A stretch of DNA of 64,000 nucleotides from Candidatus Tectimicrobiota bacterium (GCA_016192455.1 JACPUC010000007.1:68720-132719); one strand, 5' to 3'; numbered from the stretch's first letter, positions 10,757-58,157 are shown. The notes: a model not told the origin generated them from the sequence alone. Numbers and translations are program-made.

Positions 10757-12076
10757 GTGATTCAAAAAGGTGCTGAGATCGCTCCACCGAGCGGCAAGCT
10801 CGGAATCCTCCTCCCCGGCATGGGGGCCGTCTCGACGACGTTCATCATCGGCGTCCTGGCGATCCGCCGCGGCCTGGGCGAGCCGATCGGCTCCCTCACC
10901 CAGCTCGGCACCATTCGGCTGGGGAAACGGACCGAGGGGCGCAGCCCGCTCATCAAGGACTTCGTGCCCCTGGCCGGCCTCGACGATCTCGTCTTCGGCG
11001 GCTGGGACATCTTCGCTGACTCCTGCTACGAGGCGGCCTTGCGCGCCGGCGTGCTGGAGCGGGGCCTGATCGAGGCGCTGCGGCCGGAGATCGAACAGAT
11101 CAAGCCGTGGCCGGGGGTCTTCGATCAAAGCTACGTGCGCAACCTGCATGGGACCCACGTGAAGCGCGGCGACAGCAAGATGGACCTGGCCGAGCAGATC
11201 ATGGAGGACGTGCGGCATTTTCAGCAGGAGCAGCGGCTTGCCCGCATGGTCGCCATCTGGTGCGGCAGCACCGAGGTGTTCTGCGAGGCGCAGCCGGTGC
11301 ACGCCAGCGTCGCCGCCTTCGAGAAGGGCCTGCGCGACAGCGACCCCGCCATCGCGCCCAGCCAGGTCTACGCTTACGCCCTGCTGAAGAGCGGCGTCCC
11401 CTTCGCCAACGGCGCGCCGAACCTCACCGTCGATCTGCCGGCCTTCATCGAGCTGGCGCGCGAGCATGCCCTGCCGATCATGGGCAAGGACTTCAAGACC
11501 GGGCAGACGCTCATGAAGACGATCATCGCCCCCGGCCTGAAGGCGCGCATGCTCGGCATGAAGGGCTGGTTCTCGACGAACATCCTGGGGAACCGCGACG
11601 GCGAAGTGCTGGACGACCCCTCCTCGTTCAAGACGAAGGAGCAGAGCAAGAAGTCGGTGCTCGAATACATCCTGCAGCCGGAGCTCTACAAGAACCTCTA
11701 CGGCAACGTGCACCACGTGGTGCGCATCAACTACTACCCGCCGCACGGCGACAACAAGGAGGGCTGGGACAACATCGACATCTTCGGCTGGCTCGGCTAC
11801 CCGATGCAGATTAAGGTGAATTTCCTCTGCCGCGACAGCATCCTGGCGGCCCCTCTGGTGCTCGACCTGGCGCTCTTCATGGACCTGGCCCAGCGCGCCG
11901 GCATGAGCGGCATCCAGGAGTGGCTCTCCTTCTACTTCAAAAGCCCCATGTGCGCCCCCCAAGTCTACCCCGAACACGACCTCTTCATCCAACTCATGAA
12001 ACTCAAAAACACCCTGCGCTACCTCCGCGGCGAAGAACAAATTACGCACCTGGGGGTGGAGTATTATGAGGCGTAG
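10757..12076 (+). CDS. ino1: inositol-3-phosphate synthase (MIPS)
   Basis: GTG start at 10757 within ORF 10334..12076. The N-terminal Rossmann motif GILLPGMGAVSTTFIIG matches archaeal/bacterial MIPS (GxxGxVSTT). The length (440 aa) and the remainder align to the MIPS fold. Confidence 0.7.
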   Translation: MIQKGAEIAPPSGKLGILLPGMGAVSTTFIIGVLAIRRGLGEPIGSLTQLGTIRLGKRTEGRSPLIKDFVPLAGLDDLVFGGWDIFADSCYEAALRAGVLERGLIEALRPEIEQIKPWPGVFDQSYVRNLHGTHVKRGDSKMDLAEQIMEDVRHFQQEQRLARMVAIWCGSTEVFCEAQPVHASVAAFEKGLRDSDPAIAPSQVYAYALLKSGVPFANGAPNLTVDLPAFIELAREHALPIMGKDFKTGQTLMKTIIAPGLKARMLGMKGWFSTNILGNRDGEVLDDPSSFKTKEQSKKSVLEYILQPELYKNLYGNVHHVVRINYYPPHGDNKEGWDNIDIFGWLGYPMQIKVNFLCRDSILAAPLVLDLALFMDLAQRAGMSGIQEWLSFYFKSPMCAPQVYPEHDLFIQLMKLKNTLRYLRGEEQITHLGVEYYEA

Positions 12077-12188
12077 GATTTGGGGAAAGAGAGGGTGCAG
12101 TGTATCGGCGAGTTTACGATGTTGGCAACCCGGGGACGGCTTCGGTGTGACGCGACTGATTCAGAAGCCGCATAGCCAGGAATAAGCA

Positions 12189-14096
12189 GTGCGTGTCCGG
12201 CGACTCACAATTCAGAACTTCCGTGGCATATCGAGCGGCGTCGTTGATTTCGCGCGCGATACCCTGCTTGTCGGTGGCAATAACGCGGGAAAGTCCACAG
12301 TCTGCGAAGCGCTCGATCTAGTCCTGGGTCCGGAACGATTGTATCACCGCCCCGTAATCAACGAGCACGACTTTTACAAGGGTCGATATCTCGATGATGA
12401 GGGCGCGCCGGTCGAGATTCGGATTGAAGCCCTACTGCTAGACATCTCTGAAGAGGCAGAGCGACGGTTTCACAACCATCTGCGCCGCTGGAACGACACG
12501 AAGGGCTGTTTCGCTGACGAAGAAGGCGCCGGTCCTGAGGCGGGGGATGCGGACGGAACCTGCTGGGCATTACCCGTTGTTTTTATCGGCCGCTACGATG
12601 AAATTGAGGATGACTTTGTCGGCAATACCTTTCTTGCGCATCCCCTAAATGCCGTAGAGATAGAAGACGATGAGGAAACAAGGATCGGGGCGGGCTTCCG
12701 GGTATTCACCCGGGATCATAAGCGGCTATGTGGATTTCTATACTTGCGGACACTACGCACGGGATCAAGGGCGCTGAGCCTGCAACGCGGATCACTGCTT
12801 GATACGACTCTCCGGATCGGCGGGACCGGTCTCGAAAAGATGTGGCAGGATACTCTTGAGCGCTTGCAGAACCTCGATCCGCCTATCGGAGAGATCGACC
12901 AGCTCAAAAAAATCCGATCCGAAGTCGAAAAACGCATGAGTCAATTTGTCGGTCTGGCCCCGGCGGGAGAGGCGACTGCTTTCTTCGCATCGGACATGAC
13001 GCGGGAAAATTTGCGGGAAGTAGTCCGCTTTTTTGTCGCGTCCGAGCAAAGCGGGCACCTGCTGCCGTTCCAGCGCCTGGGAAGCGGCGCCATCAATATC
13101 CTGGTTTTCGCTCTCCTGACGTTCATTGCGGAACTGAAGGAGAAGCAGTCTGTCATCTTCGCCATGGAAGAACCCGAGATCGCCCTGCCGCCACATACAC
13201 AAAGGCGTGTGGTCCGATTCTCGCTCCGCGAGATGGGCCAGACGATCGTAACGTCGCACTCCCCTTACGTCATTGAGCAGTTCGAGCCCGAACAGATCGT
13301 TATGCTCAATCGGGGGGGCGACGGGACTCTGTCAGGCAAACCCATCGACACGCAAGGTATTAGGATGAAGACGTTCAAAACCGAACGGAAACAGTTTGCC
13401 GAAGCTGTCCTGAGCCGCGCGGTGCTTGTCGTGGAAGGCTCAACCGAGGCTGCCATCTTCTCCCAAGCATCCACGGTAATGGAGAAGGCGCGCGGCTCTG
13501 AAAAGTACACGCACTTTGACCTGGCCGGTGTAACCGTATTCAACGCGGGAGGTGACGGGTCTGTGCCGCGCTACGGCCCCGTTTTCATGGCTCTTAATAA
13601 GCAGATATTTGGGTTTTTCGACAAACTGAGTTCACCTTTATCCGGCGATGCAACGACAAAACTCGCGAGCTACACAAAGTACTGGGAGTCGCCACACAAG
13701 GGCATCGAAAACCTGCTCGTCGAGGAAATGTCTGTCGCTACGCTGCGCCGCTTCCTGGAAAAGGTCGGGGCGCGCCCAGACTATCCGTTACATCATCCGC
13801 ATCTGGCCGACACGATGAATGATGCGGAGGTCAAGGATCTGGCGCATAGGCTCCTGAAGGACCGTAAGGGTGATGCGTATGGATACGGCGCGCTGCTCAT
13901 TGCTGAATCCACGACGGAACATGAGCTGCCGAATACCATCCGCACCATTCTTGACGAGATAAATGAAAGGCTCGCACCGCCCGCCAAAAAGGACGGGCCT
14001 GCTGAAGATACCCAATCTGCCGCGGCTGTCGCCGCAGAGAATACAACCGGCCCTGTTTCAGCGTCCGAGGGTATGGCGATTGCGGCTGAACCTTGA
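12189..14096 (+). CDS. gajA: GajA-like OLD-family ATPase-Toprim nuclease (Gabija effector / class 2 OLD)
   Basis: GTG start. N-terminal ABC-type ATPase with Walker A LLVGGNNAGKST. C-terminal Toprim with the catalytic glutamate in VLVVEGSTEAAIF and an acidic DxD-type region in FDLAGVTVFNAGGDGS. Adjacent to a UvrD-like helicase, as in Gabija. Confidence 0.8.
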   Translation: MRVRRLTIQNFRGISSGVVDFARDTLLVGGNNAGKSTVCEALDLVLGPERLYHRPVINEHDFYKGRYLDDEGAPVEIRIEALLLDISEEAERRFHNHLRRWNDTKGCFADEEGAGPEAGDADGTCWALPVVFIGRYDEIEDDFVGNTFLAHPLNAVEIEDDEETRIGAGFRVFTRDHKRLCGFLYLRTLRTGSRALSLQRGSLLDTTLRIGGTGLEKMWQDTLERLQNLDPPIGEIDQLKKIRSEVEKRMSQFVGLAPAGEATAFFASDMTRENLREVVRFFVASEQSGHLLPFQRLGSGAINILVFALLTFIAELKEKQSVIFAMEEPEIALPPHTQRRVVRFSLREMGQTIVTSHSPYVIEQFEPEQIVMLNRGGDGTLSGKPIDTQGIRMKTFKTERKQFAEAVLSRAVLVVEGSTEAAIFSQASTVMEKARGSEKYTHFDLAGVTVFNAGGDGSVPRYGPVFMALNKQIFGFFDKLSSPLSGDATTKLASYTKYWESPHKGIENLLVEEMSVATLRRFLEKVGARPDYPLHHPHLADTMNDAEVKDLAHRLLKDRKGDAYGYGALLIAESTTEHELPNTIRTILDEINERLAPPAKKDGPAEDTQSAAAVAAENTTGPVSASEGMAIAAEP

Positions 14097-15789
14097 ACAG
14101 AAACACGAGGACATCATCAAGGCACCCCGACACCTACTTGTGACGGGTGGTCCGGGGTCGGGTAAGACGACTATCGCGCTGCTCAAAGCGAAAGAGCGCA
14201 GTCAGACCCTGAAACCTGGCCAGGAAATTCTGTTTCTCAGTTTCTCGCGCGCGGCTGTCAGACAAATCCTCACTGCCTGCAAGGACATCCTGACAGCGAA
14301 AGAGCGCAAGCTCATTCAGGTTAAAACCTATCATTCTTTCTGCCTTGAGGTTCTAGAATCCCATGGCCGTCTTCTCTCTGGCCGCCCCGTTAGTTTCTTG
14401 TACCCTAGTGACGAACGTATCCGCAAATCCACTTTTCACGGTGACTGGGGTGCCGAGCGGAGCCGCCTTTCGATCCAAGAGGGCCTCTATTGCTTTGATC
14501 TTTTCGCTCCTTCTGTCGCAACACTCTATAAACAGTGTAACGCTCTCAGGACGCTCTACGCGGACAAGTATCCTTTTGTGATCGTGGATGAGTTTCAGGA
14601 CACAGACGATGATCAGTGGCGCATCATCCAGGAATTTCTGCGTGTCACGGATGTATTCTGCCTTGCCGATCCGGAGCAGAGGATATTCGAGTACCGGGAA
14701 AATGTCGATCCCCGCCGTATCGAGTCGTTGCGGGAACTGGTAAAGCCCGCAGAGTTTGATTTAGGAGGCGATAACCACCGCAGCCCTGCCACAGGTATTC
14801 TGCAGTTTGCCGACGGCATCCTCCATAACCGCTCGCCATTGCCAAAGGCTAACGAGGTCGAGATTGTCTGTTACTACAACCGGACTTTCGAATCCACGGT
14901 CCATGCGGTCGTTCTCTGGACCTTCAGCAAGCTTAGGAGCGAGGGTATCCAAAGCCCCTGCGTCGCGGTTCTTTGCCGGAGCAACCATTTTGTCGCGCGA
15001 CTCTCCGGCATTCTCGCTGAAAGGCATAAGTTCAAGGACCAGCCATTACGGCCCGTAGAGCACGATGTCGTATGGGATGCAGATCTATCCGCGGCCTCTG
15101 CACAAGTTGTCAGCTCGATTCTCGAGTGGCAAACGAAGGCCCCCCGTCTCGCTGTCCACGATACTTTGCAAATCATCGCACACTACTATCGACTCAAGAA
15201 CGCTGAATCCCCATCCAAAACGGCTGCAGACAACGCCAGTAAGTTCCAAAAGGCTGCTAATGCCGTAAGTGAGGCCCGTAATCCGCTCATCAAGGGCGGA
15301 AAGGAGCTTTTACGCCTTGCCGGGGAGGGACTTACCTACGTTGGATCCCCGGTGACGGACTGGCTGCGGGCACGGCGTATTCTTAATGACATTGCGTCGC
15401 TTAACGAGCTGTTTCGCGAGGCACGGCTCGTCAGGTTGTTCCGGGCGACCGATGCGCTAGCAACAGGCCTTTCAGATTTATGGTTGTCACAGGGAACCTA
15501 TGCCGGGGCAGCCGATCTGGTGAAACGGATTCTTGACCGTGAACGATTGCTGGCGGCCGACCGTGATCCACATGGATGCATGCTCAAGACAATCCACAAA
15601 TCGAAGGGCAAAGAGTATGACGGCGTGGTGCTTGTCGAAGGCGCCTACGAATCCACTTTCTTCGATCAGAATCGTGAAAGACCGCCATATCCAGCCAGTC
15701 GCCGTTTGCTCCGCGTGGGAATCACACGAGCTCGCAGCCAGGTCACCCTTGTGCGGCCACACGGTGCGTATCTGCTTGTCGATCCTTGA
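14080..15789 (+). CDS. gajB: GajB-like UvrD/PcrA-family helicase
   Basis: ORF 13963..15789. Walker A LLVTGGPGSGKTT, DEFQD box VIVDEFQDTDDDQ, and C-terminal LKTIHKSKGKEYDGVVLV / VGITRARSQ motifs. The start is uncertain (TTG 14080 or CTG 14086 overlapping the gajA stop; ATG 13963 would overlap gajA by 130 nt). Confidence 0.75.
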   Translation: MRLNLEQKHEDIIKAPRHLLVTGGPGSGKTTIALLKAKERSQTLKPGQEILFLSFSRAAVRQILTACKDILTAKERKLIQVKTYHSFCLEVLESHGRLLSGRPVSFLYPSDERIRKSTFHGDWGAERSRLSIQEGLYCFDLFAPSVATLYKQCNALRTLYADKYPFVIVDEFQDTDDDQWRIIQEFLRVTDVFCLADPEQRIFEYRENVDPRRIESLRELVKPAEFDLGGDNHRSPATGILQFADGILHNRSPLPKANEVEIVCYYNRTFESTVHAVVLWTFSKLRSEGIQSPCVAVLCRSNHFVARLSGILAERHKFKDQPLRPVEHDVVWDADLSAASAQVVSSILEWQTKAPRLAVHDTLQIIAHYYRLKNAESPSKTAADNASKFQKAANAVSEARNPLIKGGKELLRLAGEGLTYVGSPVTDWLRARRILNDIASLNELFREARLVRLFRATDALATGLSDLWLSQGTYAGAADLVKRILDRERLLAADRDPHGCMLKTIHKSKGKEYDGVVLVEGAYESTFFDQNRERPPYPASRRLLRVGITRARSQVTLVRPHGAYLLVDP

Positions 15790-15830
15790 CACCCGTTCTT
15801 GGCTCGTGCATCACGTAGGCTGCGTCGCGT

Positions 15831-16136
15831 TCATCGGGAGGCATAGATGACCTCCGCCGTTGCCAAGATTCCCCGGCGCCGAAAGGGGTTCTTCAACCCT
15901 CCCTTGGCTACCAGATTAACTTCCCGCCCGAAAAGTTCCTTCAGCTCGTCGATCATGTCGAGCCAGTCATAGAGGCTCAGACCATGCCCCGGCTGCAGGT
16001 CCACCAAAACATCCACGTCGCTCTCCGGGCCGAAGTCTTCCCGCAGCGCCGAGCCGAAGATGGAGAGCTCCCTCACCCTCCACTTGCGGCAAAAGGCTGC
16101 GATGCGCTCCCGGTCGATTTCAATCTGAAGCGCCAT
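15831..16136 (-). CDS. minimal nucleotidyltransferase (MNT/HepT-system antitoxin-like), orphan
   Basis: IFGSALREDFGPESDVDVLVDL is the GSxxxGx5SDxD polymerase-beta-fold nucleotidyltransferase motif. No HEPN/HepT partner ORF is adjacent. Confidence 0.7.
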   Translation of the reverse strand: MALQIEIDRERIAAFCRKWRVRELSIFGSALREDFGPESDVDVLVDLQPGHGLSLYDWLDMIDELKELFGREVNLVAKGGLKNPFRRRGILATAEVIYASR

Positions 16137-16346
16137 CGCCAGTACTTCCTTCACGTCCCTTCAATGCGGGGACGCGAGGTTGGTGAGGTCGTATCGCCGC
16201 GCATCAACAAATGTTTCGCTTGCCTACTCCCACAGCCCGCCGCGCTGCTTGCTGGACATGTTACCGTGAAGCGGAGCTTCCCGAAAGCCTGACCAGCCGC
16301 GTCAGTCCCTGCTGGGAGCCCCCTGCTCCCCCACACCCCCTCTCAC

Positions 16347-16369
16347 CGCGAGCTGCGCAGCAGCTCGCG
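16347..16369. repeat. perfect GC-rich palindrome (9-bp stem, 5-nt loop) CGCGAGCTG-CGCAG-CAGCTCGCG
   Basis: Read directly. Lies in the intergenic region between the MNT and MBL genes. No U-tract follows. Confidence 0.6.
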
Positions 16370-16376
16370 TAGAAGA

Positions 16377-16406
16377 GGTGCGCGAGGGGGCGCGGCTCCC
16401 TCGCAG
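16377..16406. repeat. 30-bp direct repeat copy 1 (GGTGCGCGAGGGGGCGCGGCTCCCTCGCAG) containing hairpin GCGAGGG-N9-CCCTCGC
   Basis: An identical 30-mer recurs 78 bp downstream. Contains an internal 7-bp inverted repeat. Confidence 0.6.
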
Positions 16407-16454
16407 ACTTAGTTCCGGGTGGGGCAAGCCCCGTCCCTACGATCAGCCCTTGAA

Positions 16455-16484
16455 GGTGCGCGAGGGGGCGCGGCTCCCTCGCAG
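16455..16484. repeat. 30-bp direct repeat copy 2
   Basis: Identical to 16377..16406. Lies ~70 bp downstream of the stop of the minus-strand MBL gene. Confidence 0.6.
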
Positions 16485-16552
16485 TCCTCATTCTACGAGA
16501 CACGTCAGCACGCGGTCTTGTGCCGCGTCGCCCTCCCCTCTTCCCGCCGCTC

Positions 16553-17380
16553 TCACACCACCATCAGGTCCTCGCCCACGACGATCTCTCCCTGGTAGTC
16601 GCGGCGCACCACCTCGAGCAGCTTGGCCACGTCGGTGTTGGGGACGAGGTGGGTCAGCACCAGCTTCTTCACCCGCGCCTCCCGCGCCACTTTGCCCACA
16701 TCCTCGGGGAGCGTGTGGTAGGAGCCGAGGTCGCGCACCATCTCCGCCTCCGAGTTCCAGCTTGCCTTTAGGGCCGGGGGCAGGTTCGTCAACTGCATGC
16801 ACTCGTGGATGAGGACGTCGGCGCCGCGGGCGTTCTTGATCACGGCATCGCAGGGGCGGGTGTCGCCGGAGATGACGATACAGCGGTTCGGCGCTTCGAA
16901 GCGGATGCCGAAGGACGGGGTGACGGGGGGATGCTCGTTCTCGAAGAAGGCGGCGCGCCAGCCCTTCCCTTCGAGGACGAACCCCTGGTCGACCTCATGG
17001 GCGGCGATGCTCGGGTAGGGCCGCGTGCCCCCCTTGAACGAGCGGCGCAGCTCGATGTCGTAGGCGTGCAGATCGAGGAGCGTCTCCGAGATGCGCTTCA
17101 TGCGTTCCCCGCCGTAGACCCGCAGGGGATCGTGCCGGCCCATCACCCAGCTCGTGAGCAGGAAATGGCCGTAGTCGATATTGTGGTCCGAGTGGTGGTG
17201 CGTGAAGAGCAGCGTCTTGACCTTCTTCAGCGGCACGCCGGCGCGCACCAACTGCATGGCCGCGCCGCTGCCGCAGTCGACGAGCACGCTCTCGCCGCTC
17301 TCGAAGAGCATCACCTGGCTGGGCCCCTGCCGCTGAACATCCGGGATGGGACACCCCGTTCCGAGTAGCTGGCAGCGCAT
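16553..17380 (-). CDS. MBL-fold metallo-hydrolase
   Basis: The HxHxDH motif appears as LLFTHHHSDHNIDYG. Later H/D ligands (VLIHE, THL) are present. Confidence 0.8.
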   Translation of the reverse strand: MRCQLLGTGCPIPDVQRQGPSQVMLFESGESVLVDCGSGAAMQLVRAGVPLKKVKTLLFTHHHSDHNIDYGHFLLTSWVMGRHDPLRVYGGERMKRISETLLDLHAYDIELRRSFKGGTRPYPSIAAHEVDQGFVLEGKGWRAAFFENEHPPVTPSFGIRFEAPNRCIVISGDTRPCDAVIKNARGADVLIHECMQLTNLPPALKASWNSEAEMVRDLGSYHTLPEDVGKVAREARVKKLVLTHLVPNTDVAKLLEVVRRDYQGEIVVGEDLMVV

Positions 17381-17567
17381 CTCTCCCCCTTCTCGCGCGG
17401 TGTGGGTGTGGAATGGCTTTGACGTGGTCTGGTCTCAGTAGTATAGCAGCTCCGTGGCCGAAGAAGATGGGGCGGCGCGGCTCCCTCCTCCCCATACCCA
17501 AAGGCTGGGCCGAGAGCCGGAGAAGCCTCTCTCGGTCGTCGTTCCACCTCCTTGGCTTTATCCTCCT

Positions 17568-18449: not shown

Positions 18450-18593
18450 GGCGGGCTGCGCAGCGCGTCGGTGTGCGGGCCGTTCGCGCCAGTTTTTCCT
18501 TGCCTCGCCCGCGCCGTTCGCATATAGTCCGGCCTGCGGAGAGGAATCCCTCCCATGAGCTCCGAGTGTTACCTGTTCCCGAGGCGGTTGTGA

Positions 18594-18790
18594 AGCTTTA
18601 CGGGCGATGCGATAAATGCCAGGCGCCGATCTTCATGCACGTTGACAACGACCGGGACGCCTACAAGGTGCGGTCGTTCCGCTGTTGGAATGGCCATTAC
18701 CGAAGCTTTGAGAACGTGCGGCTCTCCATCCTGCCGCTCGATGAGCAGGAGCTGGAGGTTGTGGCCACGGTGCAATTCTTGGATCAGTAG
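18594..18790 (+). CDS. small zinc-ribbon-like protein (hypothetical)
   Basis: GTG start within ORF 18473..18790. CxxC...C-x-x-x-H pattern (GRCDKCQ...FRCWNGH). Weak support. Confidence 0.25.
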
Positions 18791-54861: not shown

Positions 54862-56838
54862 TCAGATGACCCGCTCGTTGCCGCCATCGACGGGAATCTG
54901 CGCCCCGGTCGTCTTCGCAAAGACGGGTCCGGCAAGGGCGCAGACCACTTGGGCCACGTCGCTCGCCGTCACCTCCACCTTCAAGAGGTTGCTGGTCTTG
55001 TATTCCTCGACGCTCTGGCCGTAACGGGCGGCGCGCTCGCGCAGCACCTCGGGGGTCCAGATGCCGGTATCGAAGACCGCGTTGGGATGCACGACGTTGA
55101 CGCGGATGCCGCTTCCCGCCAGCTCCAGCGCCGCGACCCGCGCCAATTGCGTCAGGCCGGCCTTGGCGACGGAATAAGCGGCGGCGCCCGGGCCGGGGGC
55201 CGGGACGTTCTTCGATCCCACGACGATCACCGCCGGCTCAAGCCCCACCTCGAGGTAGGGGATGCACGCCTGCAAGAGGCGCTGGTGGCTCGACAGGTTC
55301 ACCTCCAGGCTGCGGCTCCAGGTCGCCGCATCCATTTCCGCGATACTGCGGCTGGCCGGGAAGATGCCGGCGTTGCTGATGAGCAGATCAAGGCCCCCGA
55401 AGGCTTCCACGACGCCCTCGACGGCCGTCGCCACGGCGGACGCATCGGTGACGTCGCAGGTGACGCCGACGGCGTCGCGCCCGGCGAACAGGCGGGTCAC
55501 CTCGTCGTTCTTGTCGAGGGCCGCGACCGCGGCGCCCTGGGCGCGCAACGCCTCCGCGCAGGCCCGGCCGATGCCGCTGGCGCCTCCCGTCACCAAGGCG
55601 ACCTTGCCCTGGAAGGGTGCGCTGGCCGCCCCCTTGGCGAGCTTCGCCTGCTCGAGCTCCCAGTACTCGACATCAAAGAGCTCCTCCTCCGGCAGCGCCC
55701 GCCACCCCCCCAGCGCCTCGCCCCACTGGATGGCGCGGATGGTGTGGGCGACGATGTCCGCCACCACTAGCGCCTCGTGCGCCGAGCGCCCCAAGGCGAG
55801 CGTCCCGTACCCCGGCCACACCGCCCAGCGCGGCGCGGCATCGAGGCGGGTGAGCCGCGGCGCGGCGTGGCGCTCGAAGTAGCGCCGGTAAGCGTCCGCA
55901 TAGCGCGCCACCTCCTCCTCGGCATCATCCCCCATGATAACGGGGAGGCGCTTGGTGCGAATGATGTGATCCGGCGTGAGCGGACCACGGCTGGCGATGG
56001 CGGAGACATCGGGACGCTCGGCGAAGCCGCGCGCCGCCGCGCCCGCCTCCAGCCGAACCACGAGCGGCGCCCCCCGCACCGAGGAGGCGGCGCGCCGGAA
56101 GCGAGCCAGCGGCAGCAGGGGGAGCGCGGGCGGCGGCTCGGCGGCCAGGAGCACCCGCAAGACGCCGCGCCGCTCGAGGTAGTCCTCGGCCTCCGACACC
56201 AGGCCGATCATGCGCTCGTAGCTGGCGCGCGCCTCGTCGGCGAAGGTGAAGACGCCGTGGTTCAGCAGCACCATCCCCTCGAAGGCGCTCCAGTCGAGGT
56301 CGCGCGTCATCTCGTAGACCCTGCGCGCCAGGATGAAGCCGGGCATGACATAGGGGACGATGAGAACCCGCGCGCCGTAAATCTCCCGCATGCGCTCCTC
56401 GCCCGCGTCGGTATTGGTGATCGCCACGACGGCATCGGCGTGGGTATGATCGACGTAGGCGCGCGGGATGATGGCGTGCAGGATGGCTTCCACCGACGGA
56501 TTCGGCGCGTTGGGATCGAGCATCGCCGCTCGCTGGACGCGCACCATCTCGGCGTCGCTCATGCGCGCCACCCCGGCCATGCGGCGCAGCACCTGCAGCC
56601 GCACCGGCGCGAAGCCCGCCGCCTCGATGGTGGCGAGGTCCCAGCCGCTCCCCTTGACGTAGAGCACCTCTTCAAGATCGCCGAAGAAGTTGGCGGCTTT
56701 CATCTTCAGCGAGGTGTTGCCGCCGCCGTGCAGCACCAGGTCCGGCTCGCGCCCCAGCAACCGCGACGTGTAGACCCGCAGCGCCAGCGCGTCTCCAGCG
56801 CAGGCCCTCGCCTCGTCAGCGTCCCACAAGCTCTTCAC
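54862..56838 (-). CDS. bifunctional class II aldolase (RhaD-like)/short-chain dehydrogenase
   Basis: N-terminal aldolase-II fold. C-terminal SDR with TGGASGIGRA NAD(P) motif and YSVAKAG catalytic YxxxK. Confidence 0.8.
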   Translation of the reverse strand: MKSLWDADEARACAGDALALRVYTSRLLGREPDLVLHGGGNTSLKMKAANFFGDLEEVLYVKGSGWDLATIEAAGFAPVRLQVLRRMAGVARMSDAEMVRVQRAAMLDPNAPNPSVEAILHAIIPRAYVDHTHADAVVAITNTDAGEERMREIYGARVLIVPYVMPGFILARRVYEMTRDLDWSAFEGMVLLNHGVFTFADEARASYERMIGLVSEAEDYLERRGVLRVLLAAEPPPALPLLPLARFRRAASSVRGAPLVVRLEAGAAARGFAERPDVSAIASRGPLTPDHIIRTKRLPVIMGDDAEEEVARYADAYRRYFERHAAPRLTRLDAAPRWAVWPGYGTLALGRSAHEALVVADIVAHTIRAIQWGEALGGWRALPEEELFDVEYWELEQAKLAKGAASAPFQGKVALVTGGASGIGRACAEALRAQGAAVAALDKNDEVTRLFAGRDAVGVTCDVTDASAVATAVEGVVEAFGGLDLLISNAGIFPASRSIAEMDAATWSRSLEVNLSSHQRLLQACIPYLEVGLEPAVIVVGSKNVPAPGPGAAAYSVAKAGLTQLARVAALELAGSGIRVNVVHPNAVFDTGIWTPEVLRERAARYGQSVEEYKTSNLLKVEVTASDVAQVVCALAGPVFAKTTGAQIPVDGGNERVI

Positions 56839-56871
56839 GAACCGCCTCCACGCGCGCCCATCTCAAGAAGA

Positions 56872-56953
56872 GAACCACTGATGGACACGGATAGACACGG
56901 ATGATGCAGCATTTTCACTTCTCCGTGTTCATCTGTGTTCATCCGTGGTTCCT
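56872..56953. repeat. hairpin-forming direct repeat copy A (GAACCACTGATGGACACGG...CATCTGTGTTCATCCGTGGTTCC)
   Basis: An imperfect ~30-bp-stem palindrome. Also carries a cryptic duplicate of the GxxExxY ORF start codons (ATGAACACAGATGAACAC on the minus strand). Confidence 0.7.
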
Positions 56954-56969
56954 TCCTCATCCGCGGTTC

Positions 56970-57437
56970 TCACAGAACAACCCTTTTCCATTCGAGTTTC
57001 GGACGCTTGAAATTCAGAATGATCCCGACTCTTAATCTTGTGATTTTGAGGTAGTTTAGAATCTGAGCGAGCTCCAGATCCGTGATCTTCTCGACGGCCT
57101 TCGTATCGACAACGATCTGGTTGAAGGCGATCAGATCGGGCACGTAGTCCCCAACTTTCACGCCCTTGTAGATGACATCGAAGCGAGACTGCTGCTGAAC
57201 AGGGATGTTGCGCAGACCAAACTCGACGACCAAGGCGTTTTCGTAGGGCTTCTCAAGTAGTCCATGCCCCAGGCCATTTAACACTTCCATTGCGCAACCG
57301 ATAATCTGCCACGTCTCTTCTTCATGCAGGAATGGACCTTCTTGAACCACTGATGGACACGGGTTCACACGGATGTCTTTTGCAAGAGAACCCTGATCTT
57401 TTTCCCGTCCCATAAATCCGTGTCCATCTGTGTTCAT
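56970..57437 (-). CDS. GxxExxY family protein (PD-(D/E)xK-like)
   Basis: IIGCAMEVLNGLGHGLLEKPYENALVVEF...DLIAFNQIVVDTKAVEKI...KRPKLEWKRVV matches the GxxExxY family. The gene is ~47% GC. Confidence 0.7.
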   Translation of the reverse strand: MNTDGHGFMGREKDQGSLAKDIRVNPCPSVVQEGPFLHEEETWQIIGCAMEVLNGLGHGLLEKPYENALVVEFGLRNIPVQQQSRFDVIYKGVKVGDYVPDLIAFNQIVVDTKAVEKITDLELAQILNYLKITRLRVGIILNFKRPKLEWKRVVL

Positions 57438-57447
57438 CCGTGGTTCC
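57344..57447. repeat. hairpin-forming direct repeat copy B (overlaps the 5' end and start codon of the GxxExxY ORF)
   Basis: Shares GAACCACTGATGGACACGG and CATCTGTGTTCATCCGTGGTTCC with copy A, with a 25-nt larger loop. Confidence 0.7.
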
Positions 57448-57455
57448 CTTCCTCC

Positions 57456-58157
57456 CTACCCCGCCATCCAACGCAGGAACTGCTCGAACAGCGCCTGGCG
57501 ATCGATGCCCTCGAAGAAGTGCGTGCCGCCTTCCAGGAGGGGGGTCTCGCAGGGTCCGGCGGCGTTGGCGGCGATGCGCCGCGCGTGCTGGTAGGGAATC
57601 GCCGCGTCGCCCTTGCAGTGGACGAGGTAGATCGGCCGCGGCGCAATCGCGGTGACGTTCACCTTGGCGTTCGCCGCGGCGGTATCGGCGTCGTCCAGCT
57701 CGCCGAAACGGTCGCGCAGAATGCCGCGGCTGTCAGGCCGGTCGCGGTAGACGTCCTCCAGGGAGGCGAACGAGGCGAGGGCGATGCCGCCGGCGATCAG
57801 CGGGTCGCGCGCCGTGGCCGTCACCGTCATTGTCCCACCCGTGCTTAACCCCATCATCCAGACCCTGAGGCCCCGTTCGCGCAGCCAGCCGGCGAGGAAA
57901 CTCATGTCCCGCGGCCAGGCCGCCAGCTTCGGAGCGCCGGTGGATCGCCCGTAGCCGCGATGCTCCAAACTCAGCACGTGCGCGCCGCGCTCAGCGAGGT
58001 ATTCCTGCAGGTCCCGGAACTTGTGGCTTCCACCCCAGCCATGACTGAAGACGACGCCCAGGCCGTCGGCGGCGCGCGGCACAAAGAACTTGCAGAAGAG
58101 GAAACACCCCTCGTGCTCGAGGTGGAGGTCCCAATGTCGCGGCGGCGGTTTCATGCT
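57456..58157 (-). CDS. alpha/beta hydrolase
   Basis: From Met MKPPPRHW. HGWGG oxyanion region and nucleophile elbow GLSTGG. Confidence 0.65.
   Translation of the reverse strand, partial: SMKPPPRHWDLHLEHEGCFLFCKFFVPRAADGLGVVFSHGWGGSHKFRDLQEYLAERGAHVLSLEHRGYGRSTGAPKLAAWPRDMSFLAGWLRERGLRVWMMGLSTGGTMTVTATARDPLIAGGIALASFASLEDVYRDRPDSRGILRDRFGELDDADTAAANAKVNVTAIAPRPIYLVHCKGDAAIPYQHARRIAANAAGPCETPLLEGGTHFFEGIDRQALFEQFLRWMAG

Follow-up and report, generated by a model that had tools for sequence, protein, structure and literature searches.

A probable Gabija (gajAB) anti-phage cassette lying against an MntA-HepT remnant in a Candidatus Tectomicrobia genome

A 64,000-nt stretch of DNA (one strand, hereafter the window, with coordinates counted from its first letter) from a high-GC Candidatus Tectomicrobia genome contains a low-GC segment between ino1 and a gene for a metallo-beta-lactamase (MBL)-fold hydrolase. 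This segment encodes an OLD-family ATPase-nuclease, a UvrD-like helicase and a minimal nucleotidyltransferase (MNT), and raises the question of whether these genes constitute a defence system of foreign origin and, if so, whether the MNT belongs to it. Very probably, the segment is an anti-phage system of the Gabija type (Class 2 OLD), made up of two genes and acquired horizontally, and it lies against the remnant of an MntA-HepT toxin-antitoxin module.

Identity of gajA and gajB

Two genes make up the cassette:

12189..14096, + strand: gajA, Class 2 OLD-family nuclease, 635 aa (PADLOC, Pfam, AlphaFold2/Foldseek)
14080..15789, + strand: gajB, UvrD/Rep/PcrA-like superfamily 1A (SF1A) helicase, 569 aa (PADLOC, Pfam, AlphaFold2/Foldseek, gene call)

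Both gajA and gajB are intact, full-length members of their families and are translationally coupled; the 5' end of gajB overlaps the 3' end of gajA by 17 nt, an overlap typical of such coupling. The open reading frame (ORF) of gajB as listed spans 13963..15789, with its stop codon at 15787-15789, and the start is TTG 14080, not the first in-frame ATG at 13963. A GAGGG Shine-Dalgarno sequence (14067-14071) precedes this TTG, the PADLOC alignment opens at residue 43 of the longer frame, and on identical metagenome contigs GajB was independently called as a 569-aa product with its start at 14080.

The identification of the pair as Gabija is based on curated PADLOC profiles that match both proteins over their full length, on Pfam domains, on conserved catalytic residues and on predicted folds, with features defined according to Antine et al. 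(PMC10781630), Schiltz et al. (PMC6755086) and a review of OLD proteins (PMC10568477). GajA matches PADLOC profile PDLC00086 (E=1.7e-227, 755 bits; residues 1-615 on positions 1-595 of 600), and GajB matches PDLC00104 over 561 residues (E=8.6e-199, 660 bits; positions 3-568 of 574). Pfam matches of GajA include AAA_15 (4e-25), AAA_21 and OLD-like_TOPRIM (2e-6; 28.7 bits, above the cut-off of 23.2), and those of GajB include UvrD-helicase (1e-23), AAA_19, UvrD_C and UvrD_C_2. GajA is laid out as an N-terminal ABC ATPase, a dimerisation insert and, at the C terminus, a Toprim domain with a helical insert. An earlier note on this DNA had read a Walker A motif (GGNNAGKST) and a Toprim domain in gajA, a UvrD-like helicase with GGPGSGKTT and DEFQD in gajB, and from these the architecture of Gabija or class 2 OLD systems; the motifs are present where it saw them, and the profile searches bear out both the domains and the architecture.

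Conservation of the catalytic residues was assessed in an alignment of 46 GajA family sequences that are 59-77% identical to the window protein. K35, E327/E328, H357, E416, E420, D478, E507 and K560 are invariant (46/46). They include the motifs of an ABC ATPase, namely K35, the lysine of the Walker A motif at residues 29-37, the Walker B residues E327/E328 in VIFAMEEPE and the H-loop residue H357 in TSHSP. GGPGSGKTT (residues 23-31) and DEFQD (residues 170-174) of GajB are likewise invariant in 38 of 38 family members, and gajB is thus an adjacent, co-oriented gene for an SF1A helicase with a Walker A motif of the form Gx4GK[T/S] and a DExQD box.

The predicted folds point in the same direction. 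The AlphaFold2 model of GajA has a predicted local distance difference test score (pLDDT) above 90 throughout the Toprim region, and a Foldseek search with the whole model places the GajA structures 8u7i, 8x5i and 8sm3 and TsOLD (6p74) at the top (E 1e-17 to 7e-19). The GajB model (pLDDT 81.9) gives Rep (1uaa), UvrD and PcrA as best matches (E 1e-20 to 1e-22), and also matches GajB of Bacillus cereus (8sm3_B, 7e-15).

Such a superposition of GajB on Rep, UvrD and PcrA, taken with weak N-terminal matches of GajA to SMC_N, RecF, RecN and Rad50 models, would also suit a repair operon in which a housekeeping SMC/RecF/RecN-like ATPase is paired with the cell's own UvrD/PcrA. This explanation is extremely improbable. 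GajA scores 27.8 bits against SMC_N (cut-off 40), 17.3 against RecF (172), 15 against RecN (408) and 20.6 against Rad50 (700), in each case over residues 1-50 only, whereas the Gabija profiles are matched over the full length of both proteins. The PcrA, UvrD and Rep equivalog models score 55-68 bits on GajB against cut-offs of 911-1144. A Toprim nuclease domain, a foreign base composition and relatives that reside in defence islands (see below) also argue against a repair operon. An SMC/RecF-like identity of the ATPase, which the earlier note had singled out for checking by profile searches, is refuted by these scores of 15-28 bits, which are confined to the Walker A region and fall below the cut-offs, and the Gabija reading therefore stands.

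Assignment to another class of OLD protein (a Class 1 solitary OLD, AriA of PARIS, a PtuA-like protein of Septu, or an OLD associated with a retron) draws on several matches. GajA has secondary PADLOC matches to AriA (5.6e-25) and Old (6.8e-23) and NCBIfam matches to PtuA and the retron Eco8 effector; TsOLD, a Class 1 protein, comes third in the Foldseek search, and retron Eco8 structures are matched as well. However, the AriA, Old, PtuA and Eco8 matches are partial and hundreds of bits below that to PDLC00086, and no AriB, PtuB, reverse transcriptase or non-coding RNA is present at the locus. Further, gajA is translationally coupled to a gene for a UvrD-like helicase, and an OLD nuclease coupled to such a helicase is the defining context of Class 2/Gabija (PMC10568477). 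The model also predicts a helical insert after the Toprim core of GajA (helices 506-595), as in Class 2 proteins. Membership in one of these other classes is therefore very unlikely indeed, and the pair is best described as Gabija.

The Toprim active site of GajA

In the AlphaFold2 model of GajA, E416 directly follows beta1 (411-415) and G454/G455 follow beta2 (448-452), so that the Toprim glutamate and glycine are both found at their expected strands. D478 comes directly after the predicted beta3 (472-477). Beyond the core comes the insert, whose first helix contains E507; K560 lies 53 residues further on. E420, E507 and K560 have spacings like those of BpOLD, their mapping being by spacing and predicted helices only.

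The position of the Toprim DxD motif (D455/D457 in BpOLD) appears to be occupied in the window protein by D478-K-L (residues 478-480; window 13620-13628), D478 having been mapped from the secondary-structure prediction and from where the Pfam alignment ends. The third residue of the motif is P in 35 of the 46 clade members and L in three. Thus, judged from the alignment, a strict DxD appears to lack its second aspartate throughout the clade, the other catalytic residues being invariant. Residue 456, which is near the DxD position in sequence, is acidic (D or E) in 45 of 46, and the position of Thr506 of BpOLD corresponds to Gly505.

This difference is the principal argument for regarding the cassette as a decaying or inactive relic, with a nuclease compromised by loss of the second aspartate, as the DxD aspartates were termed absolutely conserved in the Class 2 set of Schiltz et al. 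(PMC6755086). The substitution, however, is clade-wide and leaves the other catalytic residues untouched, as expected of a conserved variant and not of decay. In BpOLD, moreover, the single mutation D457A left cleavage without visible change (PMC6755086). These observations, the nearly constant acidic residue 456 and gajA and gajB ORFs that are full length relative to the profiles make a relic quite unlikely.

Relatives, distribution and acquisition

The left boundary of the insert is the following spacer:

12077..12188, no strand: left junction, from the ino1 stop to the gajA start (112-nt spacer, GC 0.55)

Base composition sets the segment apart from its surroundings, as the earlier note had estimated (about 55% against about 68% GC). 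In 500-nt windows, GC is 0.52-0.58 across approximately 11750-16000 and 0.65-0.70 on either side, and gajAB is the lowest-GC 3.6 kb of the entire window (0.554, against a mean of 0.661 with a standard deviation of 0.028). GC content at third codon positions (GC3) is 0.63 in gajA and 0.60 in gajB, compared with 0.80-0.92 in six neighbouring genes; the MNT, at 0.77 (0.765), falls between the values of the host genes and those of gajAB. In ino1, GC3 remains at 0.92-0.98 in all 50-codon blocks through to the stop at 12076, so that the left compositional break lies within the spacer 12077-12188 and outside ino1. The 500-nt GC falls from approximately 11500, and the 3' end of ino1 was therefore considered as part of the insert; this was rejected on the basis of its GC3. 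The left spacer probably carries the gajAB promoter. A promoter and terminator scan of 11900-16600 yielded nothing beyond shuffled expectation, and no sigma-70-like site above chance was found on the + strand of this spacer.

Relatives of the cassette are numerous and phylogenetically scattered. More than 5000 GajA relatives are found at E<=1e-20, of which the closest (77-79% identical) are on metagenome contigs. Those that are 60-65% identical come from Syntrophorhabdus, Xanthobacter, Devosia, Acidobacterium and Afipia, and GajB relatives of 60-61% identity come from Pseudomonas aeruginosa, Salmonella, Delftia, Achromobacter and Ralstonia, some being labelled 'MULTISPECIES: Pseudomonadota'. 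The GajA/GajB subfamily is large and common in Pseudomonadota and Acidobacteriota; it is already represented in PADLOC, and Gabija is a very common, known defence system.

The two closest loci contain the same overlapping gajA-gajB pair within a defence island, beside PglZ/SNF2 genes or DUF1156/DUF499 genes. Their gajAB GC (0.59-0.61) is near that of their own flanks (0.61-0.63). Nucleotide similarity between these nearest cassettes and the window runs from 12190 to 15743-15767, i.e. over the two ORFs only. The low GC and GC3 of gajAB, the composition of the nearest relatives, the confinement of similarity to two ORFs and the housekeeping neighbours together support the view that gajAB is a minimal two-gene cassette horizontally acquired into a housekeeping region, in agreement with the earlier proposal of an acquisition between ino1 and the MBL gene.

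A metagenome contig (L002, window 11833-14533) from run SRR12113401 contains an ino1-gajA region that is 99.56% identical and has the same junction. Since this variant comes from a different run, two or more closely related strains or populations have the cassette at this site.

The MNT gene and the HepT remnant

Downstream of gajB, three features bear on the fate of a neighbouring module:

15831..16136, - strand: MNT (MntA-like minimal nucleotidyltransferase antitoxin), 101 aa, intact, solitary (Pfam, PADLOC)
15809..15844, - strand: HepT toxin remnant, codons 1-12 (MPPDERDAAYVM) of a HepT/DUF86 RNase gene (alignment, tblastn)
15790..15808, no strand: right junction, from the gajB stop to the end of HepT similarity (19 nt; HepT similarity only at 15844..15809)

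The MNT ORF (15831..16154, - strand) encodes 107 aa, and the ATG at 16136, with AAGGAAG upstream, gives 101 aa. This ATG is probably the start, and the 101-aa call agrees with independent gene calls on identical metagenome contigs. The protein matches NTP_transf_2 (2.8e-13) and Polbeta (4.5e-9) in Pfam, and scores 35.7 bits against the NCBIfam model MntA_antitoxin, under the cut-off of 60. Four PADLOC candidate PDC-S09 profiles match it at 1e-16 to 4e-26 (best 4.3e-26); PDC-S09 has candidate status only, being defined through its association with defence genes, and a match implies no demonstrated function. The catalytic motif GS...DxD can be read in the sequence as G28-S29 and D40-V-D42 in 101-aa numbering (FGSALREDFGPESDVDV).

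Among 2666 MNT homologues, the closest are 75-81% identical. Four of the closest (78-79% identical) were studied; they sit in unrelated contexts, and two of the four are followed by HepT (Pfam PF01934), with an 11-nt overlap with the MNT stop. An MNT followed by an overlapping HepT is the canonical arrangement of the type VII MntA-HepT module, in which MntA neutralises the HepT RNase through adenylylation (PMC7641770). The window has an ATG at 15844 that overlaps the stop codon of the MNT just as in intact pairs, and the frame that it opens reads MPPDERDAAYVM. This stub aligns with the intact HepT starts, MRPDERDAGYLL in locus L175 and MVPEKRDAGYLL in locus L086, in the same frame and at the same overlap position. 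The intact HepT genes themselves start MRPDERDAGYLLDML (L175) and MVPEKRDAGYLLDML (L086), both beside MNTs that are 78% identical to that of the window.

Past codon 12, the reading frame of the stub diverges and ends in a stop at codon 34 (a 33-aa ORF, 15743..15844). A tblastn search of HepT against the 64-kb window returned the 12-codon stub as its top and only match, and no other HepT/HEPN (RX4-6H RNase) gene was found next to the MNT or elsewhere in the window. Scanned against Pfam, the 33-aa stub ORF matched nothing, as expected, since the HepT model there does not start until residue 14 of the actual protein. The event by which the HepT body was lost has its breakpoint in the 19 nt at 15790..15808. 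With the toxin body missing and the stub alone left, the locus is a decayed module, not a functioning toxin-antitoxin system.

The position of the MNT could suggest a working role in the window Gabija, as its third component or as a regulator. It adjoins gajB in convergent orientation, 42 nt from stop to stop, it is intact with its catalytic motif, it lies in the same low-GC zone and it matches PDC-S09. On the other hand, the two closest Gabija cassettes are without any MNT, the gene is transcribed from the strand opposite to gajAB, its closest homologues occur in unrelated contexts, half of those studied with an overlapping HepT, and a HepT 5' stub is still attached to the gene in the window. 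Such a role is accordingly very unlikely. The sequence instead identifies the MNT as the apparent surviving antitoxin of a decayed MntA-HepT (type VII) module, and as no component of Gabija. The earlier note had seen that the MNT follows gajB with no HEPN/HepT toxin gene and had left two explanations, a degraded toxin-antitoxin pair or an MNT with a different partner. The attached stub upholds the first, and the second finds no support, as the closest Gabija cassettes have no MNT.

Two other solitary MNTs, each 79% identical to that of the window, also keep HepT stubs, of approximately 5 codons (L083:3290-3340) and approximately 30 codons (L178:2290-2400). Toxin loss with the antitoxin kept thus recurs independently in this MNT clade.

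Weight of the evidence and proposed mechanism

Several observations weigh against the reading of the segment as an acquired, working Gabija system, and they concern both the proteins and the insertion. As regards the proteins, similarity to the B. cereus VD045 system is faint (GajA, E of approximately 1e-5 with a single sequence and 6e-11 with the 46-sequence profile; GajB, approximately 4e-7), the GajA model superposes on GajA structures with modest whole-chain TM-scores of 0.43-0.55, and it renders the dimerisation insert poorly (pLDDT below 50 at residues 189-302). A search of the Protein Data Bank (PDB) with a Toprim-only profile, and likewise with the single sequence, returned only chance matches and no solved structure. 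With D-K-L/P in place of DxD, the nuclease chemistry could differ from that of typical members.

As regards the insertion, no integrase, tRNA, or direct or inverted repeats bracket the insert, and the locus contains no Rfam families. An ino1 probe of genome and metagenome contigs aimed at an empty site gave best matches of 74% identity, and none of the 80 genome loci with ino1 matches contained homologues of the neighbouring genes; no empty site was found. An MBL probe of the metagenome collection found no match; in exact look-ups the ino1 product had no record and the MBL gene only short unitigs ending at a 40-nt repeat (described below). Finally, the order of events may be read in two ways, since gajAB may have entered a resident toxin-antitoxin locus and deleted hepT, or a composite fragment that was already truncated may have arrived as such. 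The intermediate GC3 of the MNT fits either order.

The following sequence of steps is proposed for the Gabija system of the window. By analogy with characterised systems, GajA and GajB would assemble as a hetero-oligomer, for which the stoichiometry in B. cereus is 4:4 (PMC10781630), with the Toprim nuclease of GajA as the effector. This nuclease would be inactive in the uninfected cell and would nick or cleave DNA upon infection. In B. cereus, nucleoside triphosphates (NTPs) block DNA binding by GajA, and nicking is released once infection depletes the nucleotides; at the DNA termini made, GajB subsequently hydrolyses (d)ATP and (d)GTP, leading to abortive infection (PMC8136825; 10.1101/2023.05.02.539174). 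Gabija of P. aeruginosa PA14 is non-abortive and targets linear DNA ends free of RecBCD, which is unable to load onto them (PMC12407980). Either activation model could apply to the window clade, as its sequence does not decide between them. Protection against phage by the window gajAB is a prediction.

With respect to the neighbouring module, insertion of gajAB, or a later deletion at its edge, would have taken out the hepT body. This loss would have been tolerated, as the toxin is what was removed, and would have left mntA solitary and presumably with no role in Gabija.

A more speculative and, on balance, unlikely proposal is that the PDLC00086/PDLC00104 subfamily, with its D-K-P/L motif and larger, Rep/UvrD-like GajB, has an altered metal chemistry, e.g. 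single-metal nicking without processive cleavage, and an activation logic unlike that of B. cereus, and, separately, that the solitary MntA is more than a relic and serves in anti-addiction, as an antitoxin to incoming mobile elements that carry HepT.

The locus means little beyond annotation, as the record of a Gabija system in a Candidatus Tectomicrobia genome. It is, in addition, a clean example of a defence cassette placed against a truncated toxin gene. Only this close contact of the cassette edge with the toxin remnant and the clade-wide departure from DxD are mildly unusual.

Flanking genes and other features of the window

The flanks consist of housekeeping genes. On the left, ino1 encodes myo-inositol-1-phosphate synthase (Pfam PF07994, 4e-98), and on the right lies the MBL-fold hydrolase (Pfam PF12706/PF00753). 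The six neighbours considered, namely genes for a DegT aminotransferase, an HpcH aldolase, Ino1, the MBL hydrolase, an EamA transporter and a DUF4149 protein, gave no PADLOC matches.

The spacer between the MNT and the MBL gene contains a repeat, given here as context only:

16376-16415 and 16454-16493, no strand: two copies of a 40-nt palindrome-containing repeat, 90% identical

Its 23-nt core, GCGAGGG-N9-CCCTCGC, has these two matches in the window, against 0.01 expected, and no others; a partial copy of the repeat lies at 17471-17487. The repeat is found on the right side of the insert only. Short metagenome unitigs over this region all end at one of the copies, and folding of the region gives -63.8 kcal/mol (z = -2.9). 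The repeat may represent a repetitive extragenic palindromic (REP)-like element or a terminator pair for the MBL gene.

Three further observations concern other parts of the window. A second low-GC patch (0.58) at approximately 56500-57750 includes a 155-aa ORF at 56970-57437 (- strand), which we take to resemble a small protein of the GxxExxY / PD-(D/E)XK type. Positions 1-1000 form a third low-GC stretch (0.57-0.58). A 105-aa ORF at 18473-18790 (+ strand) contains a CxxC...CxxxH pattern (CDKCQ...CWNGH) and has no Pfam or PADLOC match; it is possibly the gene for a small zinc-ribbon protein, and possibly no gene at all.

Comparison with known systems

The B. cereus VD045 Gabija (PDB 8SM3, 8J4T, 8TK0) shares with the window the gajA-gajB order, the combination of ABC ATPase and Toprim in GajA, and an SF1A helicase. 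The Walker A and Walker B motifs of B. cereus GajA (BcGajA) align to those of the window protein, with correspondence of the Walker A lysine, the Walker B EEPE, the H-loop histidine and the Toprim glutamate (E379 in BcGajA, E416 in the window), and its structures are the top fold matches. The two systems differ in that identity is only approximately 11-16% in structural alignments and in that the window proteins are larger (635 vs 578 aa for GajA and 569 vs 494 aa for GajB). BcGajA has DxD (D432/D434) where the window protein appears to have D-K-L, and the modelled window GajB is nearer to Rep/UvrD than to B. cereus GajB. Sequence-specific nicking and NTP inhibition are properties of BcGajA and putative for the window GajA. 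In terms of sequence, then, the window clade is remote from the CHARACTERISED Gabija (B. cereus), and it would represent a large, widespread Gabija subfamily that lacks the second DxD aspartate and stands very far from the one Gabija whose structure has been characterised. That distance, together with the DxD difference, means that the B. cereus mechanism should be transferred with caution.

BpOLD and XccOLD (Schiltz et al. 2019, PMC6755086) provide a parallel for the active-site residues. By spacing, E400/E404 would correspond to E416/E420, which are invariant in the window clade, and E508/K562 of BpOLD would correspond to E507/K560, an acidic residue in the first insert helix being followed by a lysine 53-54 residues later in both. 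Two BpOLD residues, T506 and D457, are without equivalent, their places being taken by G505 and L480 in the window GajA. Sequence similarity of the window Toprim region to the structure 6NK8 was not detectable.

Gabija of P. aeruginosa PA14, carried on PAPI-1 (Hong et al. 2025, PMC12407980), is a proteobacterial, mobile-element-borne gajAB pair, and defence there requires the two genes as well as their ATPase and Toprim residues (PMC12407980). Its GajB, however, has a DESQ box in place of the DEFQD that is invariant in the window clade. This argues against PA14 Gabija as a member of that clade, and it probably belongs to a different subfamily.

The neighbouring module finds its counterpart in the type VII MntA-HepT system of Shewanella oneidensis (Yao et al. 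2020, PMC7641770). The two differ in that the toxin body is deleted in the window, where AMPylation by the MNT is only putative, and they are alike in having a small MNT with GS...DxD and, in the window as in the intact pair, an overlapping HepT start.

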